Shown here: in pieces, positions 1 to 29,690 of the stretch
How positions within the stretch are numbered: position 1 is the stretch's first letter
Layout: the number at the start of each line of letters is the position of its first letter
Notes under the pieces: generated by a model
Database searches by the model: none
Told to the model about the DNA's origin: nothing
What the model saw: only the letters and a program-made list of their open reading frames with translations
DNA from: a virus
Lineage: Duplodnaviria; Heunggongvirae; Uroviricota; Caudoviricetes
Direction: 5' to 3' (one strand)
IMG/VR virus record: IMGVR_UViG_2778261511_000013
Length of the DNA stretch: 34,208 nt
Program-made: the position numbers and the translations under genes

Positions 1-705
1 TCATATTAGAACCTCCCCGAGTAAACATTCCCAACGAAATTTCTTCAGTTTATATATTTCTAAATTATCCCTAATTATTCCATCCTGCTTTGCTTTATCG
101 GCCCAACGATTATGAGGATGTACAGTCCCAACTAACTGCCACCCAGCACCTTTTAAAGATGCGCCTGTTTCACTGCTTAGAGTATAGGTAATAATTTTTT
201 CTCCTCCCATCATTTTCCAGATTGTGCTACATCGACTAATCAGAAAGGAGCAAGTTCCTTTTGGAGATTTGTCACTGACACATAATCGTGTAATCTCTGC
301 CGTCACACCATCCATGTACGTTGCAGATACGGGATTTCCAACTATCGCTACACCAACCAATTCATCAGAATCTATGTGGTAGGCAGCTATAGCCCATCTG
401 CCCGAATTCCTTGACGTTGGTCGATGGTGTCGATGATAAATAGAAACAAATTCATTTGCTTTTTTTATCGTTATAGGTTTTACATATAGTAACTTCGCCA
501 AAATCCACACCTTGTAACATGATGGTAATATCATTACAACAATACAAAACTTATTGATTTTTAACAACCAATTATAATGCCTAACCCCCATAGCACTACT
601 TATCTTGTCTTCAAAAATCAGCTCGCATCCTGCACAGTTCAGCGCATTACGTTGTAGATCTGTGTTCTGGTCATTTGTTGACACACGTACATAGCCAATA
701 AGCAT
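1..705 (-). CDS. chimeric ORF: invertase N-terminus (~36 codons) fused in frame to an unrelated domain with GNAT-acyltransferase-like motifs (possible Mom-like modification enzyme or toxin)
   Basis: Open frame from ATG at 705 (SD CAGGGAG 8 nt upstream) to TGA at 3..1. Residues MLIGYVRVSTNDQNTDLQRNAL...IFEDK match the Hin/Gin/Pin serine-recombinase N-terminus, then similarity stops. Downstream ...ELVGVAIVG...RLCV..KSPKGTCSFLISRC...TYTLSSETGASLKGAGWQLVG resembles GNAT motifs. AT-rich linker at about 480-600. Confidence 0.4.
   Translation of the reverse strand: MLIGYVRVSTNDQNTDLQRNALNCAGCELIFEDKISSAMGVRHYNWLLKINKFCIVVMILPSCYKVWILAKLLYVKPITIKKANEFVSIYHRHHRPTSRNSGRWAIAAYHIDSDELVGVAIVGNPVSATYMDGVTAEITRLCVSDKSPKGTCSFLISRCSTIWKMMGGEKIITYTLSSETGASLKGAGWQLVGTVHPHNRWADKAKQDGIIRDNLEIYKLKKFRWECLLGEVLI
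598..705 (-). pseudogene. DNA invertase (Hin/Gin/Pin-family serine recombinase) N-terminal remnant; catalytic core and HTH absent
   Basis: Only about 36 aa including the YVRVST motif with the nucleophilic Ser are retained; no recombinase sequence follows. Confidence 0.6.
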
Positions 706-759
706 GGTAGATCTCCCTGACAAAAGCAGGGATGATGCCATTTGCTCGTTATTTCTACA

Positions 760-785
760 TTTTCATAAACGTTGGTTTGGGAGAA
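760..785. repeat. invertase crossover site (hix/gix-like 26-bp dyad), one boundary of the invertible tail-fibre segment
   Basis: TTTTCATAAACG-TT-GGTTTGGGAGAA; 20/26 identical to the reverse complement of the site at 2591-2616; resembles hixL TTCTTGAAAACCAAGGTTTTTGATAA as I recall it. Confidence 0.65.
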
Positions 786-1238
786 GGTTCGGCATTACCC
801 GTTGGTGTGCCTGTTCCGTGGCCTTCCGCCACTCCGCCAACAGGCTGGCTAAAATGCAATGGTGCGGCTTTTTCTGCTGAAGAATACCCGGAACTGGCAA
901 AGGTTTATCCGACAAATAAATTGCCTGATTTACGCGGTGAATTTATTCGTGGCTGGGATGACGGACGTGGAGTGGATGCCGGGCGACAATTATTATCTTC
1001 ACAGGGGGATGCAATAAGAAATATTGAGGGATTCGCAGATGGCGGAATCGGTATGTCTTTTGATGCAATCAGAGGGGCTTTTTACGATGCAGGAACACGA
1101 TCAGCGAGAATGCCGAATAACACAACTACTATAGACAAAACCGATGACCTTGGATTCGACGCCTCTCGTGTCGTGCCAACAGCTAATGAAAACCGTCCAC
1201 GTAACATCGCCTTTAATTATATTGTGAGGGCTGCATAA
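786..1238 (+). CDS. alternate tail-fibre C-terminal (variable) cassette, silent in the current orientation
   Basis: Frame is continuous through the crossover site (..NVGLGE|GSALPVGVPVPWP..); contains ..GWLKCNGAAFSAEEYPELAKVYP.., typical of Mu S / P2 H-type fibre C-termini; no independent start or SD; stop overlaps the Tfa start (TAATG at 1236-1240). Confidence 0.6.
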   Translation, partial: GSALPVGVPVPWPSATPPTGWLKCNGAAFSAEEYPELAKVYPTNKLPDLRGEFIRGWDDGRGVDAGRQLLSSQGDAIRNIEGFADGGIGMSFDAIRGAFYDAGTRSARMPNNTTTIDKTDDLGFDASRVVPTANENRPRNIAFNYIVRAA

Positions 1239-1831
1239 TGAAACCTGTTTTTGATGAAAATGGGCTGGCTACAGTGCCGGGTGATATGCGTTGTTTTTAT
1301 TATGATGCAGTAACGTCTGAATATACGGGCTGGTCTGATGAATATATTAATACTGGCGTAAGTATGCCCGCCTGTTCCACTGGTATTGACCCGGGCGAAT
1401 ACATTCCGGGGAAAGTGGCAGTATTTACGGGTAAGGGATGGAGCCATGAAGAAGACCACCGCAATAAGACTGTTTACTCAATCGAAAATGGCGCAGCTGT
1501 TACAGTGGATTATATCGGTGCCATCAAAGACGGTTATGTCACGATTTCAGCGTTAACGCCATACGATAAATGGGATGGTGAGAAATGGGTGACAGACACT
1601 GAGGCACAACACAGTGCCGCAGTAGACGCGGCAGAAGCACAGCGCCAGTCACTGATTGATGCAGCAATGGCTTCCATTAGTCTGATTCAGCTGAAATTAC
1701 AGGCCGGGCGGAAACTGACGCAGGCAGAAACAACCCGGCTTAACGCTGTGCTGGATTATATTGACGCGGTGACGGCAACAGATACCAGCACAGCGCCGGA
1801 CGTCATCTGGCCTGAACTGCCGGAGGCGTAG
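1238..1831 (+). CDS. tail fibre assembly protein (Tfa) for the alternate fibre cassette
   Basis: 197 aa; C-terminal ..LNAVLDYIDAVTATDTSTAPDVIWPELPEA matches the Tfa family signature; follows the fibre cassette. Confidence 0.75.
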   Translation: MKPVFDENGLATVPGDMRCFYYDAVTSEYTGWSDEYINTGVSMPACSTGIDPGEYIPGKVAVFTGKGWSHEEDHRNKTVYSIENGAAVTVDYIGAIKDGYVTISALTPYDKWDGEKWVTDTEAQHSAAVDAAEAQRQSLIDAAMASISLIQLKLQAGRKLTQAETTRLNAVLDYIDAVTATDTSTAPDVIWPELPEA

Positions 1832-2243
1832 GCCATTCAATATCTGGCGCACCGGAAGTATCGACCAGTTCCAGTGCGTCCAGATAATCCAGCCACAAAT
1901 TATATTGCGCCAGTTCCTCACCTTTCAGGCGACCAATCGCCGCTTTACCAGGCCATTGCTTACTGTTTATGTATTCGTTGACCTGATTAATCAATTGCTG
2001 CTTTTCCAGTTCGGCTGCGGCAATTTGTTCCTCATGAGTTGGCGGTGGAATATCAATCCATGCAGGCATTCCGTCGATGACACCTCTGTATTTTCCTTCT
2101 GGTGCTTCCTTCATAAATTCGGCGGCAACAGTGTCGTCAATTTCGATTCCATCATCGGGCCATTCACCGGATTCCTGATAAGCGATTTTAAGCTCCACAG
2201 GGAAAAACGCATTTTTATCGGCACTGAAAATATATTTCTGCAT
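1803..2243 (-). CDS. tail fibre assembly protein (Tfa) for the expressed fibre
   Basis: 146 aa; C-terminus ..YNLWLDYLDALELVDTSGAPDIEWPTPP is Tfa-like; convergent with the + strand Tfa as in Mu G and e14 P segments. Confidence 0.75.
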   Translation of the reverse strand: MQKYIFSADKNAFFPVELKIAYQESGEWPDDGIEIDDTVAAEFMKEAPEGKYRGVIDGMPAWIDIPPPTHEEQIAAAELEKQQLINQVNEYINSKQWPGKAAIGRLKGEELAQYNLWLDYLDALELVDTSGAPDIEWPTPPAVQAR

Positions 2244-2245
2244 TT

Positions 2246-2959
2246 CTACCGTCCTATCGAAATATAACTGAATCTGTATTGCTGTGAGATATCACTGGTT
2301 GCCACACGCCACGCTGAATTACTGATATGTTCAAAATTTACAGACAAAACCTGCGGGGCAGGATTCGACGGGTCTGACTGAACGGCATCAGACATAACAC
2401 TGACTGAAACCATCGGCTGATTAGGGAATGGTATAGGGAAGTGTCCACTGATAAAGCGGGTCGTGTTTCCTGAAAAAGTGCCAAACTGAACAATATATCC
2501 ACCTGGTAGCCTGAACCATCCCGAACCAGAAGCGAATGCTCCCATATCCGGTATCTGATTATCTCCTGTGCCCACATCCCTTTTCGCCGCTTCTCCTAAA
2601 CCAAGGTTTTCGAGAGCCGTTTTCACCGTGCCATCCGATTTGATATCGCCAAACGGATTCTTGCGGCTCAGGTATTCAACAGCAAACCCCGATCCCAGCA
2701 ATTCAACAAAACCGGGCAGATCACCATTATCAAGCACATCCCGTTGCGTTTTATCACTTACAAACTGGGCCAGAGCTGCAGCAATAAAGCTGGCCTGCCG
2801 AATAACCTTATTGACTTGCGCACTGGAGGCTTTCCCTGCTGTAAATCCAGATAAAAGCGCGGGCAACGCTTCCCATTCCTCCTGCGATATAACATTGGCA
2901 TTTCGATCCGTTGCAAACGCTTTAAAGTCATTTTTCGCCATCAGAGTAATACTCCCCAT
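2246..2959 (-). CDS. tail fibre protein (constant N-terminal part about 2617-2941, variable C-terminal part 2246-2590)
   Basis: 237-aa ORF downstream of the baseplate genes; crossover site lies within the gene at the GLGE motif; likely start is the ATG at 2941 (MAKNDF..), overlapping the upstream stop (TGATG). Confidence 0.65.
2591..2616. repeat. invertase crossover site (hix/gix-like dyad) inside the tail-fibre gene
   Basis: TTCTCCTAAACC-AA-GGTTTTCGAGAG; inverted relative to the 760-785 site; encodes LENLGLGE in the fibre frame. Confidence 0.65.
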
Positions 2960-24727: not shown

Positions 24728-24804
24728 ATGGTGCTGGTTAACGGACTTGAACCGCTACCCATTCGCTTACAAGGCGACTGCTCTACCATTGGAGCTAAAC
24801 CAGC
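24728..24804 (-). tRNA. tRNA, anticodon UGU by manual fold (tRNA-Thr)
   Basis: GCTGGTT-TA-GCTC-CAATGGTA-GAGC-A-GTCGC-CTTGTAA-GCGAA-TGGGT-AGCGG-TTCAAGT-CCGTT-AACCAGC-A-CCA; perfect 7-bp acceptor stem, good D and T arms, encoded CCA. Confidence 0.7.
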
Positions 24805-24809
24805 ATATT

Positions 24810-24884
24810 TGGCGGGACAGCGTGGACTCGAACCACGATAAGAAGGTTAACAGCCTTCCGTAATGACCTTTATACGACTGACCC
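24810..24884 (-). tRNA. tRNA-like gene, anticodon GUU by manual fold (tRNA-Asn-like), possibly degenerate
   Basis: GGGTCAG..GAAGG-CTGTTAA-CCTTC..CGTGG-TTCGAGT-CCACG-CTGTCCC-G-CCA; good anticodon and T arms, but a T:T mismatch in the acceptor stem and a weak D stem. Confidence 0.45.
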
Positions 24885-25464: not shown

Positions 25465-26126
25465 GCGCCTTCTCCCTGTACCTGAATCAATGTGAGATTT
25501 CCGCAGAACACTGCCCCAGTATCGATATACATCTGGTTGGCAAATTTGAGTGGTTTCACTGCTGGCGTATGACCAAAGATAAACGTGTCCGCGCCTTTAA
25601 TTTCTTTAACGATCCCGTCTTGTGAGTTGCTGATTCGTTCGCGGTTCCAGATTACCTGCTGATGATCAACTGGCTTTCCAAATTCGTATTCGTCACAAGG
25701 ATAATCGGCGTGGCAGATGACATATTTTTTACCTTTGCTCACCAGTTCGATGATTAACGGAAGTTCTTCTGCTTTATGGGCAAGAGCTTTAGCCAGAATT
25801 TCTTTGTCGTAATCGAGATTAAAGAACCAGCCACCGCCATTAAGCAGCCAGTGATTAACGTTTCCACGCTCTGATAAGCCATCAATCATCATTTGCTCAT
25901 GGTTTCCACGTACAGCTCTGAACCAGGGGAATGTGATTAATTCCAGGCATTCAACGTTCTCTGCACCACGATCAACCAAATCGCCCACCGAGATAAGCAG
26001 GTCTTTTTTGTTGTCGAATCCAATCGTATCCAGTTTGTTCATCAGGTTCGTGTAGCATCCGTGCAGATCGCCAACTACCCAAATATTTCGGTATTTGCTG
26101 CCATCAATTCTTTCGTAGATATTCAT
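25455..26126 (-). CDS. Ser/Thr protein phosphatase (lambda PP / NinI)
   Basis: [44 protein letters not shown]; metallophosphatase motifs GDxHG, GDxxDRG, GNHE; matches lambda phosphatase. Confidence 0.9.
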
Positions 26127-26734
26127 GCAGCCTCACTTCTGCTGTTTCGCAGTTTTTTAAGTTTCTGTTGATACTCCGCCTTGATGGCCCTGCACTCTTC
26201 GACAGTCCAGCGATGGCGGTTATGGTTTGATTCGATTTCGTCTACTGCTTCCTGCCCGATGCGGTTAATCAGTTCGACGCGATACGGAACGAGATTTCCG
26301 CTTTTGTGCTGGTTGCACACCACGCATTGCTTGTGAATATTGCGTTCATCAAATCGGAGTTGAGGCGCCGCAGCAGTTGTCCGGTAATGCCCGGCATCCC
26401 ACTGAGCAGACGTGAGCGTTCCGCACGAGATACATGGTAAGTCGCGGTCTCTTTCTCTGATGAAGGCGTTTACGGCTTGTTGGGCTTGTTTAATCCAGTA
26501 ACTGCGGGGCTTTAAGGCGAGTTTTCGAATCTTAAGTTTATCTTTCTGTTTCTGCTCCTCTCGTCGTCGTTTCTTCTCTGCTGCCTTTTCCGCTTTTTCG
26601 CGTTCTTTGCTTCGTCGTTCGAGTGCTATCTTGGTTCCACACTCTGGAGAGCACCACCACTGATTGGCGAATGCAGGGTGAAACCATTCCCGACATTCAT
26701 CGTTTTTACATCGTCTTCGCGCTGGTTTAGCCAT
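26123..26734 (-). CDS. ninG: NinG (Rap) recombination-associated protein
   Basis: 203 aa; Cys-rich N-terminus ..[25 protein letters not shown]..; matches lambda NinG as recalled; position. Confidence 0.8.
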
Positions 26735-26897
26735 CGTCTTCTTCCTCGTGCATCGAGCTATTCGGATCGCTCATCAGTTCTGCGCAGCAGTGCTCACACA
26801 CGTGAACTTCCAGCACATGCAGCTTCTGACCGCAGTTAGCGCACGTTAAAGCTCGCTCGACACTTCCTTGTTCGTAACTTCGATTTTGGTCAATCAC
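26727..26897 (-). CDS. ninF: NinF zinc-ribbon protein
   Basis: Hand translation ..[45 protein letters not shown]; GTG start overlapping the NinE stop (GTGA); missed by the 60-aa cutoff. Confidence 0.7.
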
Positions 26898-27076
26898 CTT
26901 GTTTTCCTCGCACGTTCTCTAAGCCACCGGATATCCCACAGGTGAGCCGTGTAATTGAAGGTTTTTACGTCAGATTCTTTTGGGATTGGCTTGCGTTTAT
27001 TTCTGGAGCGTTTCGTTGGAAGGTATTTGCAGTTTTCACAGATTATGTCGGTGATACTTCGTCGCTGTCTCGCCAC
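26894..27076 (-). CDS. ninE: NinE
   Basis: 60 aa; ..[30 protein letters not shown].. matches lambda NinE as recalled. Confidence 0.7.
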
Positions 27077-27216
27077 ACGTCCTCCTTTTCCTGAGGTAGT
27101 GGTAACACCCCTGTTGGTGTTCTTTCACACCGGAGACACCATCGATTCCAGTAAGGCTGTCCTGGTCGAAAGCGATCGTCTTCCTTTCGCTCTCCACATC
27201 GATAACAGTGCTTCAT
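27043..27216 (-). CDS. NinD-like small zinc-ribbon protein
   Basis: 57 aa from ATG at 27216 (ATGA overlap with the MTase stop); [16 protein letters not shown] has two CxxC pairs. Confidence 0.5.
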
Positions 27217-27803
27217 GCGATCACCATTTTGCATGGTTTAATCGCCATGCCGGGAGCCAGTTCAAAATCGGAGTCGCACTGATTTCCCCACATATCCCAC
27301 CCGGTCACTTTGTCGCGGCTAAATAACTCACAGCGCGGCACGTCGCCAAGCAACTTAGCTAACATGTCTCTTACGATCGGTGGTTTTGCACTGTGCTCCA
27401 TTCTCGGTGCGGTAAAGTGCTGGCATATTGAAGCGTCCATTCTCTCAGGTAACCGCCCTCGAACGGCAAACAAGCAATCCTCGCTATTTGCCCGGGTCAT
27501 ATGCCCCATTCCGATCGCACTGTTGCCTTTGTGCTTATTGGTTTTGTGCCAAGTAAAGCCTTTCATAGTCATCAACCTGAATCCCCACGCCTCAATTACC
27601 TTTAGCGCTTCGGCTGGCTGTGTCGGCACCCACCACATCGCTAACAAGCAAGATTCTGGATCCGCTAAATCCCATACTGGCAGTCGGCAAATGTCCTGAA
27701 CATTCATAACATCGTATTTATGTCCAGCACCGCGATTGCCATCGTTGGCTTTGTCGCGATATTGCCAAGGCGGATCTGCGTAAATAAGTTGGTATTTGTT
27801 CAT
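27213..27803 (-). CDS. orphan DNA N6-adenine methyltransferase (DPPW motif; MT-A70/Dam-like)
   Basis: 196 aa; N-terminal ..[10 protein letters not shown].. is the catalytic motif IV of N6-adenine MTases; no adjacent restriction endonuclease; occupies the ninC position. Confidence 0.75.
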
Positions 27804-28240
27804 TCAGTTTTATCTCCCCATCTCGCTTTCCACTCCAGAGCCAGTCGCGCTTCGTCTGACCACTTAACGCCACGCTCTGTACCGAATGCCTGTATAAGCT
27901 CTAATAGCTCCGCAAATTCGCCTACACGCATCCTGCTGGTTGACTGGCCTATTACCACAAAGCCATTCCCGGCAAGGTTAGGAACAACATCCTGCTGCTT
28001 TAATGCTGCGGTAAACACACACTTCCAGCTTTCTGCATCCAGCCAGCGACCATGCCATTCAACCTGACGGGAGACGTCACCTAAGCAGGCCCATAGCTTC
28101 CTGTTTTGGTCTAAGCTGCGGTTGCGTTCCTGAATGGTTACTACGATTGGTTTGGTTGGGTCTGGAAGGATTTGCTGTACTGCGTGAATAGCGTTTTGCT
28201 GATGTGCTGGAGATCGAATTTCAAAGGTTAGTTTTTTCAT
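27800..28240 (-). CDS. ninB: NinB (Orf-family recombination mediator)
   Basis: 146 aa from MKKLTFEIRSPAHQQNAIHAVQQILPDPTKP.., matching lambda NinB as recalled. Confidence 0.8.
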   Translation of the reverse strand: MKKLTFEIRSPAHQQNAIHAVQQILPDPTKPIVVTIQERNRSLDQNRKLWACLGDVSRQVEWHGRWLDAESWKCVFTAALKQQDVVPNLAGNGFVVIGQSTSRMRVGEFAELLELIQAFGTERGVKWSDEARLALEWKARWGDKTE

Positions 28241-28257
28241 GACTTCCCTCTCCCCCA

Positions 28258-28287
28258 AATAAAAAGGCCTGCGATTACCAGCAGGCC
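28258..28287 (-). terminator. tR2-like rho-independent terminator between the replication genes and the nin region
   Basis: Minus strand GGCCTGC-TGGTAATC-GCAGGCC followed by TTTTTATTT. Confidence 0.6.
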
Positions 28288-28313
28288 TGTTATTAGCTCA
28301 GTAATGTAGATGG

Positions 28314-29690
28314 TCATACGTCAGCCCCTTGTGCATATCGCCTGCCACGTGCAGCGGGTGCATTTGATGTTGTGCAAATCTGTCTGGCTTCATCCTGGTC
28401 ACATGCAACAAAGTGTCCGTTACAGAACCGCTGGTAAACCGTACCAAGCGAGCCAAAACGGTTTTTTGTCACAATGATTTCAGCAAATGGCGCGGCGCTA
28501 CTGTTCTCGTCATATACCGCTTCCCTATAGAGCATGATGATTGAGTCTGCGTCCTGTTCAATGCTTCCTGAATCACGCAAATCTGCGTTTGTCGGGCGTT
28601 TGTTTGGTCGCTTCTCAACATCGCGTGAAAGCTGACTCAGGGAGATAACAGGCGTTTTCAGGTCTTTCGCCATCGCCTTCAGGCTTCCTGAGATGTGAGC
28701 AATTGCGAGGTCGTTGCGATCTGCTTTCGGCTTCTCAATCAGGCCAAGATAATCCGCCATGATGAGTGACAGGTTTGGATTTTCCTGTTTGTGCCGTTCT
28801 GCGATTGAGCGTATTTCTTCGACCGATAACCGCGAGGCATCGACTACCCATACATCCAAATCTGCAAGCTGACTCATGCCGTTAGCAACGCGCGCCCAGC
28901 CTTCGTCATCCATCGATGCAGGATTTCGCAGCACGCTAACCGACATCCTCCCGGCGTTGGCAATACTTCGCTCTGCAATCTGCAATGCGCTCATTTCCAT
29001 CGAGAAAATCAATACTCCGCGCCGGACGTCAGAACCAGGAATAACACGACTTGCAACGCCTTCGGCAATCTTCAGCGCCAGTTCGGTTTTCCCCATACCA
29101 GGACGAGCAGCGATTATCACCAGGTCTTCCGCGTTCATCCCTCCGGTGATGGCATCAAGTTCTTCGATTCCGGTCTTCAGGGTATCTGACTCTTCTCCGT
29201 TCCTCAGACGCCTGTCAAGCGTGTCAGTGTAGTCGGTGATGATTTCCCCTAACCGTACAGGTTTTACCTCGTCACGTGGCTTTCTGATGGCTGAAAGACG
29301 CTTTACCAGCTCGTCCATCGCCTGACTCGATGTATCGATGGTTCCGTTCTGAATTGGTTCACGCATTTCATCCATGATTTCCAGCACCAGGCGGCGGTGA
29401 TAGTTATCCGCGACCATTCCGGCATATCCCTTCAGGTTTGCGGCACTCGGGCAGTTTTTGCTGGTCATCAGGATTGACGTGAAATGCTCCTCTCCGCACG
29501 CCTCGGCAACCATCAGCGCGTCGATTAGGTTTCTGTTTCTCGCCTGCTTGCGGATAACCTCGAAGGCTTTCCGGTAGAGCGGAATTGAAAACGCTTCCGG
29601 CTCCAGCGTTGCCAGAACGTCGCTGGCGGTTGGTGTTAATCCACCAATCAGCAGGCCACCGATAACGCTCGCTTCGATATCCTGTTTCAT
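28314..29690 (-). CDS. DnaB-family replicative helicase (P22 gp12-type)
   Basis: 458 aa; Walker A ..[12 protein letters not shown].., RecA-like C-terminal domain; follows the O-like initiator. Confidence 0.8.

Follow-up and report, generated by a model that had tools for sequence, protein, structure and literature searches.

The gene at positions 27213 to 27803 (minus strand) of IMGVR_UViG_2778261511_000013, a caudoviral record of IMG/VR whose whole stretch of 34,208 nucleotides is referred to here as the window, very probably encodes an active orphan adenine methyltransferase of the MT-A70 family. The reading that we favor, with a probability of roughly 0.55 drawn from sequence comparisons, is that this is a solitary, S-adenosylmethionine-dependent methyltransferase of the lytic phase whose main substrate would be GATC in DNA. 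The gene, its family, its intact motifs and fold, the geometry of its coupling to the adjoining genes, and the boundaries of the cassette in which it lies are established here. Gene, family, slot, and orphan status are all already familiar, and the protein is already annotated in RefSeq. An earlier note, made from the letters of this DNA, had described an orphan DPPW-motif N6-adenine methyltransferase lying between ninB and a ninD-like gene, and the open reading frame (ORF), the motif, the family, and the neighbors are indeed all present, as follows.

27213..27803, minus strand: gene for an MT-A70 family (beta-class) N6-adenine methyltransferase of 196 amino acids (ORF, Pfam, PHROG, AlphaFold2 model, and RefSeq identity).
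27765..27776, minus strand: DPPW catalytic motif IV, residues 10 to 13, codons GAT CCG CCT TGG (sequence).
27800..28240, minus strand: ninB, encoding the Orf recombination mediator, the upstream coupled gene (Pfam NinB PF05772, E = 2e-54; 98.6% identity to lambda).
27043..27216, minus strand: ninD, the downstream coupled gene (Pfam NinD PF17466, E = 1e-39).
27800..27803, minus strand: ATGA overlap of the ninB TGA with the methyltransferase ATG (sequence; annotated likewise in an identical Escherichia coli locus and in the Cronobacter ortholog).
27213..27216, minus strand: ATGA overlap of the methyltransferase TGA with the ninD ATG (sequence; annotation of the identical locus by the Prokaryotic Genome Annotation Pipeline [PGAP]).
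27814..27819, minus strand: GGGGAG, a Shine-Dalgarno-like element 10 nucleotides 5' of the methyltransferase ATG, within the 3' end of ninB (sequence).
27219..27799, no strand assigned: cassette without a lambda counterpart, replacing ninC (blastn against lambda).

The methyltransferase ORF is intact and full length (591 bp on the minus strand, with an ATG start and a TGA stop). Its product matches the Pfam MT-A70 family, PF05063, over profile positions 1 to 172 of 172 (E = 2.2e-25; 90 bits, cut-off 23.9), as well as PHROG 359, "DNA methyltransferase" (E = 4e-107), and the PADLOC Type II methyltransferase model MTase_II (E = 2.5e-70). The phage Dam family PF05869 gave no match in Pfam, and no NCBIfam model matches the protein. 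In an alignment of 54 homologs, D10, P11, and W13 of the DPPW motif are invariant and P12 is at least 90% conserved; S138, K140, P141, E159, F161, R163, W172, and G173 are also invariant. The catalytic motifs, whose disruption on alignment would in the eyes of the earlier note have spoken against the prediction, are thus intact throughout. The conserved residues correspond in alignment to elements of Tetrahymena MTA1 and human METTL3 that serve in catalysis and cofactor binding, D10 pairing with the catalytic D209 of MTA1, and the beta order is permuted, with DPPW N-terminal and the HS-KP and ELF-R/WGN elements C-terminal to it, at residues 137 to 175. The AlphaFold2 model of the protein has a mean predicted local distance difference test (pLDDT) score of 80.5 and a predicted template modeling score of 0.82, and pLDDT falls below 50 only at residues 95 to 103 and in the final three residues. 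The best PDB match found with Foldseek was METTL3 (E = 7e-13; template modeling score, 0.68), followed by MTA1 and METTL4.

Many prophage methyltransferases are silent in methylomes, and the gene might on that account be taken for an inactive remnant or for the modification half of a split restriction-modification system. This is hardly credible here, because the family-invariant residues are all present in a full-length ORF, the gene is 96 to 100% conserved in many genomes, and an endonuclease is neither adjacent nor detectable in the window. The statement in the earlier note that there is no cognate endonuclease was likewise borne out, in that the gene is flanked by nin genes and PADLOC found no restriction-enzyme family among the 47 ORFs of the 34-kb window, the int-side end of the prophage lying outside it. 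Two PADLOC hits were rejected as defense genes: "mad8" (E = 8e-8) is a generic match of the DnaB-type helicase, and "PtuB" is a generic match of the NinG HNH region.

The expectation of a GATC target comes from the relatives of the protein that have been studied. PhiBZS1_p32 of Serratia phage BZS1, acting alone in a dam- host, rendered plasmid DNA resistant to MboI and sensitive to DpnI, and HinfI and Hin1II sites remained cleavable (PMC7556043). M.EfaBMDam, carried by Tn1549, is GATC specific according to the same source (PMC7556043). M.EcoGV, from E. coli O104:H4, is listed among GATC-specific enzymes, is described as methylating GATC in vivo if overproduced alone, and is highly similar to the Stx2-phage enzyme according to Gong et al. 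(PMC10810198). We built a neighbor-joining tree of the window protein and 70 cluster representatives, in which three GATC-characterized enzymes span the whole tree and the window protein sits on the branch with the enzyme of Stx2a phages. Since the window protein lies within the tree spanned by those three enzymes, GATC is the parsimonious expectation for it. A search of the methylome literature for bacterial MT-A70 enzymes with motifs other than GATC returned nothing usable.

The enzyme would most likely act as a homodimer without a partner subunit, an arrangement favored because beta-class methyltransferases are believed to require dimerization for activity, and like Dam it would most likely methylate adenine within the GATC sites of DNA. 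Host Dam cannot keep pace with rapid phage DNA replication, and Dam methylation of lambda DNA is incomplete. A methyltransferase supplied by the phage would complete the GATC methylation of its fast-replicating DNA ahead of packaging; full methylation would protect that DNA from GATC-targeting, methylation-sensitive restriction and would free it from host processes that depend on hemimethylation, e.g., those of SeqA and MutH. An anti-restriction or epigenetic role, such as the earlier note had suggested, would be plausible. By analogy, a Dam-like job at the level of DNA finds support in phage 434, where this slot is taken by an unrelated gene of a Dam family.

Several points weigh against this reading. 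The phylogenetic bracket is weak because most branches of the tree are uncharacterized, and identity to the GATC-characterized enzymes is only 43 to 62%. The enzyme of the Stx2a phage phiPA8 (gp5), M.EcoPA8orf6770P, has when alone next to no in vitro activity on DNA with unmethylated GATC, showing weak, nonspecific use of S-adenosylmethionine (SAM) on DNA and RNA, and in the argument of Gong et al. the GATC methylation seen with M.EcoGV may be an artifact of overexpression (PMC10810198). The loop at about residues 88 to 103 of the window protein is unlike that of the Stx2 enzyme and is modeled at low confidence. A GATC methyltransferase, moreover, looks redundant in a Dam+ host, and the GATC target is itself a predicted one.

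The weak and nonspecific SAM use of the isolated Stx2-phage enzyme can also be taken to suggest a DNA adenine methyltransferase of different or very relaxed specificity, giving broad anti-restriction cover in the manner of Hia5, M.EcoGII, and PhiOS31_p25. Nonspecific phage adenine methyltransferases do exist in comparable accessory positions, and the 196-amino-acid protein of the window has no obvious separate target recognition domain and a poorly modeled loop at residues 95 to 103. However, the known nonspecific enzymes come from other families (Hia5 is a DPPY, Dam-related enzyme, and M.EcoGII is a different beta-class enzyme), every prokaryotic MT-A70 member tried alone in vivo gave GATC, and BZS1 p32 spared HinfI and Hin1II sites. 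We consider relaxed specificity possible but unlikely.

The same Stx2-phage enzyme raises the question of an RNA substrate. It has been reported that M.EcoPA8orf6770P and PNB-2, which is encoded by the gene upstream, associate in a 1:1 ratio; that their complex favors 16S rRNA and 30S subunits over DNA by a factor of more than 13 and increases spontaneous induction; and that PNB-2 confers the RNA specificity, the C-terminal tail of the enzyme being proposed to bind PNB-2 (PMC10810198). A follow-up preprint linked the rRNA methylation to protection of ribosomes from Shiga toxin (Stx). The window protein is 62% identical to this enzyme, and its nearest solved structures are METTL3-type writers of N6-methylated adenine (m6A) in RNA or DNA, so that one could picture it as the catalytic subunit of a 16S rRNA m6A enzyme that tunes translation or prophage induction. 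We regard this as improbable, since the specificity comes from PNB-2, and PNB-2 is found neither in the window nor beside the gene in 80 related loci.

For the PNB-2 search, the reference was defined via the published terminator of phiPA8 gp7/gp6, which is present verbatim in Stx2 phage F039. Phage phi345 was discarded as a source of PNB-2: the terminator is absent from it, and its upstream ORF retains only the last ca. 15 PNB-2 residues. BZS1 p34 was rejected as a PNB-2 homolog. With the PNB-2 proteins of Stx2 phage and HK639 as queries, tblastn detected no homolog in the window, and PNB-2 adjoined the gene in none of 80 IMG/VR loci of related enzymes; the single weak match in those loci (33% identity) lay ca. 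2.6 kb upstream, in locus L038. The Stx-type C-terminal tail (about the last 27 amino acids), which Gong et al. connected with the binding of PNB-2, is also absent: the two proteins diverge after WGNQC...PG, and the tail of the window protein is unrelated and 12 residues shorter. The rRNA function is further tied to protection from Stx, yet the window contains no stx, the region between Q and the holin gene holding only tRNA-Thr(TGT) and tRNA-Asn(GTT) (24729 to 24884, minus strand). The window thus lacks the features that define the rRNA-methylating holoenzyme and has those of a stand-alone enzyme.

Some further observations concern PNB-2 and the tRNA pair. The tRNA pair occupies the site at which Stx phages carry tRNAs plus stx. 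HK639 gp37 shares 54% identity with the PNB-2 of Stx2 phages and is encoded two genes upstream of the MT-A70 gene of HK639 (L004, 1903 to 3151). The pair of PNB-2 and methyltransferase therefore also occurs in HK639, a non-Stx phage; a 2023 preprint calls the pair unique to Stx2 phages. In Stx2 phage F039, the PNB-2 gene is frameshifted (L006, 1860 to 2921).

The early region of the window is lambdoid, with genes for a CI-like repressor, CII, O, and a DnaB-type helicase along with the nin genes, Q, and the lysis genes; the late region to which it is joined is of the contractile-tail type. Around the gene, homology to lambda in blastn is confined to 26123 to 27218 and 27800 to 28317, with flank identities of 95.6 to 98.6%. 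The methyltransferase cassette is thus an exact gene-for-gene substitution of lambda ninC, with its break-points at the start and stop overlaps. The GGGGAG element falls in the lambda-homologous part, and in lambda the same element precedes ninC. The claim of the earlier note that the gene is translationally coupled is supported by the geometry of the locus, as 4-nucleotide ATGA overlaps occur at both junctions. Its "ninD-like" neighbor stands where the note had placed it, but the label was too weak, the protein being a genuine NinD. We place the start of ninD at 27216; Pfam NinD covers residues 7 to 63 of a longer ORF, and PGAP annotates a NinD of 57 amino acids. The genes that follow encode NinE, NinF, NinG, a NinI-type phosphatase, and Q (Pfam).

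This position bears on when the enzyme would be made. Upstream of ninB the window carries a hairpin, as follows.

28265..28288, minus strand: tR2-like intrinsic terminator upstream of ninB (terminator scan: 8-bp stem, 6 GC pairs, T-rich tail; TTTTATTT).

The hairpin stands where lambda has tR2, and a terminator is annotated at the equivalent site of phage 434. A sequence scan found no promoter-like site 5' of the methyltransferase gene on its strand. Transcription of the lambda nin region is delayed early, N dependent, and lytic. By the same logic the methyltransferase, a gene without a promoter of its own, would be reached by transcripts from pR only once N lets them pass the tR2-like terminator, and its translation would be coupled to that of ninB. 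Lying behind this terminator in the repressed pR operon, the gene is therefore probably silent in the lysogen, and its anatomy suggests that the methyltransferase is probably a delayed-early lytic function.

The coupling to ninB invites the idea that NinB, a single-stranded-DNA-binding recombination mediator, is the targeting partner of the enzyme, so that recombination or replication intermediates would be methylated. MT-A70 enzymes often need a second subunit, and in ca. 18 IMG/VR loci a methyltransferase 81 to 99% identical to that of the window directly follows NinB or a DUF1367 protein, even where the NinB is only 40 to 55% identical; the same order is found in Cronobacter and in Erwinia phage 59. 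Conserved gene order nevertheless suffices as an explanation. The slot after ninB is a generic one, occupied by ninC in lambda, by an unrelated Dam gene in 434, and by different genes in an E. coli prophage that is a close relative, and the epsilon15-like subclade (74 to 79% identity) lies near int without NinB. A partnership with NinB is accordingly very unlikely. We give little credence, too, to the broader idea that the PNB-2-less enzyme of the nin region might be an m6A writer of some other substrate, for instance RNA or single-stranded replication and recombination intermediates, with NinB recruiting it in the place of PNB-2.

The expected silence of the gene in the lysogen affects how GATC methylation could be recognized. 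Forde et al. were unable to tell Dam and its homologs apart. The activity of a phage GATC enzyme would be invisible against that of host Dam, and the comparison of the methylomes of lysogen and cured strain that the earlier note had put forward would probably be uninformative. Because the gene is probably silent in the lysogen and host Dam would mask a GATC mark, a finding of no new motif in the lysogen, which the note would have counted against its prediction, would refute nothing.

The distribution of GATC itself was also considered. In the whole window GATC is strongly under-represented, with 89 sites observed versus 188 expected from trinucleotide frequencies (ratio, 0.47), and only CTAG (0.24) is more so. 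GATC avoidance is known for enterobacterial phages, and the depletion in the window fits it. The methyltransferase gene contains five GATC sites in its 591 bp, i.e., 8.5 per kb versus 2.5 per kb elsewhere in the window; of these five, one falls within the DPPW codons and another in a Shine-Dalgarno-like GGTGATC just before ninD. Enrichment was also seen in the genes of Cronobacter, Erwinia, and HK639 but not in those of epsilon15, Stx2 phage, and Tn1549, the last having none. We dropped the enrichment as a hint of specificity or autoregulation because it is inconsistent among homologs.

The earlier note had further proposed that the enzyme could interact with a Mom-like candidate at the left end of the window, given that Mu mom expression is Dam dependent. 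Expression of mom in Mu requires GATC methylation upstream of its promoter. The left-end ORF (1 to 741, minus strand; 246 amino acids) scores only 23.3 bits against Pfam Mom, below the cut-off of 27.1, and proves to be a chimera: residues 15 to 50 match the N terminus of resolvases and pin-type invertases, and residues 87 to 238 constitute an XF1762-family protein (NCBIfam, E = 5e-50), which is in frame with the first ca. 50 residues of a pin/gin-type invertase. Besides this weak similarity to Mom, the regulatory link has little to commend it. Just two GATC sites are present upstream, separated by 53 bp and located inside the invertase remnant; host Dam supplies the GATC mark in any case; and the cassette is found in prophages with quite different late regions. 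Control of this gene by Dam-type methylation is therefore extremely unlikely, and we do not retain the claim.

The same end of the window has other features. The ORF at 1 to 741 adjoins an invertible tail-fiber segment, the position held by mom in Mu, and related E. coli prophages have an intact pinE there. The layout of 732 to 2959 resembles an invertible tail-fiber segment of the Mu/P1 type, as follows.

732-1831, plus strand: tail-collar-domain ORF and tail-fiber-assembly ORF.
1803-2959, minus strand: tail-fiber-assembly ORF and gp53-like fiber ORF.

Since the invertase is truncated, the segment at 732 to 2959 may be frozen. Elsewhere in the window, the replication module (28314 to 29690, minus strand) combines an initiator of the lambda O type with, in place of lambda P, a replicative helicase of the DnaB type.

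A gene with 100% identical DNA is annotated in E. coli RefSeq as "MT-A70 family methyltransferase" (WP_021560741.1), and no mention of WP_021560741 was found in the literature searched. A gene at least 95% identical is present in 39 of 5,426 complete E. coli genomes, lying between NinB and NinD among the matches listed. The Cronobacter sakazakii ortholog (92% identity) is flanked by NinB and NinE and shows the same overlaps, and homologs of 70 to 92% identity occur widely among Enterobacterales. The family as a whole is very large, a whole-library search returning 12,524 representatives of 50%-identity clusters at E ≤ 1e-3. Among phages, tblastn gave identities of 82.5% for Erwinia phage 59, 78% for epsilon15, 64% for Stx2a phages, and 45% for HK639, and identities to the window protein in the MAFFT alignment were 77% for epsilon15, 62% for Stx2a (187 residues), 50% for HK639 gp35, 46% for BZS1 p32, and 43% for Tn1549. 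The 80 IMG/VR loci fall into two cleanly distinct contexts. Members of a subclade of at least about 81% identity occur in nin regions, directly after NinB or a NinB-like DUF1367 protein, and those of a subclade of 74 to 79% identity are epsilon15-like, located beside an integrase with a PerC-like gene upstream. Erwinia phage 59 (L012, 4368 to 5432) and loci L025 and L041 additionally encode a cytosine methyltransferase of the Dcm type, a few genes downstream of the MT-A70 gene, so that some relatives stack two orphan methyltransferases in one operon.

On its own, the finding of an ordinary, uncharacterized member of this family carries little weight. Its interest lies in the question, raised in 2023, of whether small phage MT-A70 proteins are Dam-like DNA methyltransferases or rRNA enzymes that need a partner, for which the subclade without PNB-2 and without Stx offers a natural control.

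Compared with known systems, the window protein has its closest phage homologs in NP_848237 of Salmonella phage epsilon15 and the "6N-adenine methylase" of Erwinia phage vB_EhrS_59. The Erwinia gene shares the nin-region setting, following a NinB-like gene, whereas the epsilon15 gene is int proximal with a PerC-like gene upstream. M.EcoPA8orf6770P and M.EcoGV resemble the window protein in MT-A70 family membership, N-terminal DPPW, similar size, and status as prophage-borne orphans. The Stx2 enzyme differs, however, in being encoded next to int in the early-left operon, with the PNB-2 gene upstream, and in having an unrelated C-terminal tail that is 20 amino acids longer. PhiBZS1_p32 and M.EfaBMDam belong to the same prokaryotic MT-A70 subgroup, but their genes lie next to int or inside a conjugative transposon, and in enzymes of the BZS1/HK639 type the loop that follows the W-x-K motif is enlarged by an insertion of 24 residues. 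More distantly, METTL3-METTL14 and the ciliate MTA1-MTA9 share fold and catalytic motif with the window protein at ca. 22% identity; these eukaryotic enzymes are heterodimers with accessory domains that target mRNA or ApT in DNA, while the window protein is a bare catalytic domain.

Further comparisons concern the slot itself. Lambda NinC occupies the identical slot between near-identical flanks but is a PAPS-reductase-like protein of 290 amino acids and no methyltransferase. In phage 434, the order is ninB, methyltransferase, and ninE, with 4-nucleotide overlaps and again an orphan enzyme, which in contrast belongs to the unrelated PF05869 Dam-type family (E = 1.5e-64). The 434 gene is a functional analogue of the window gene through non-orthologous displacement. 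Another phage-borne methyltransferase, M.EcoVT2Dam, is listed as GATC specific. With MT-A70, PF05869 Dam, or NinC as its occupant, this one lambdoid slot provides a clean case of non-orthologous displacement.

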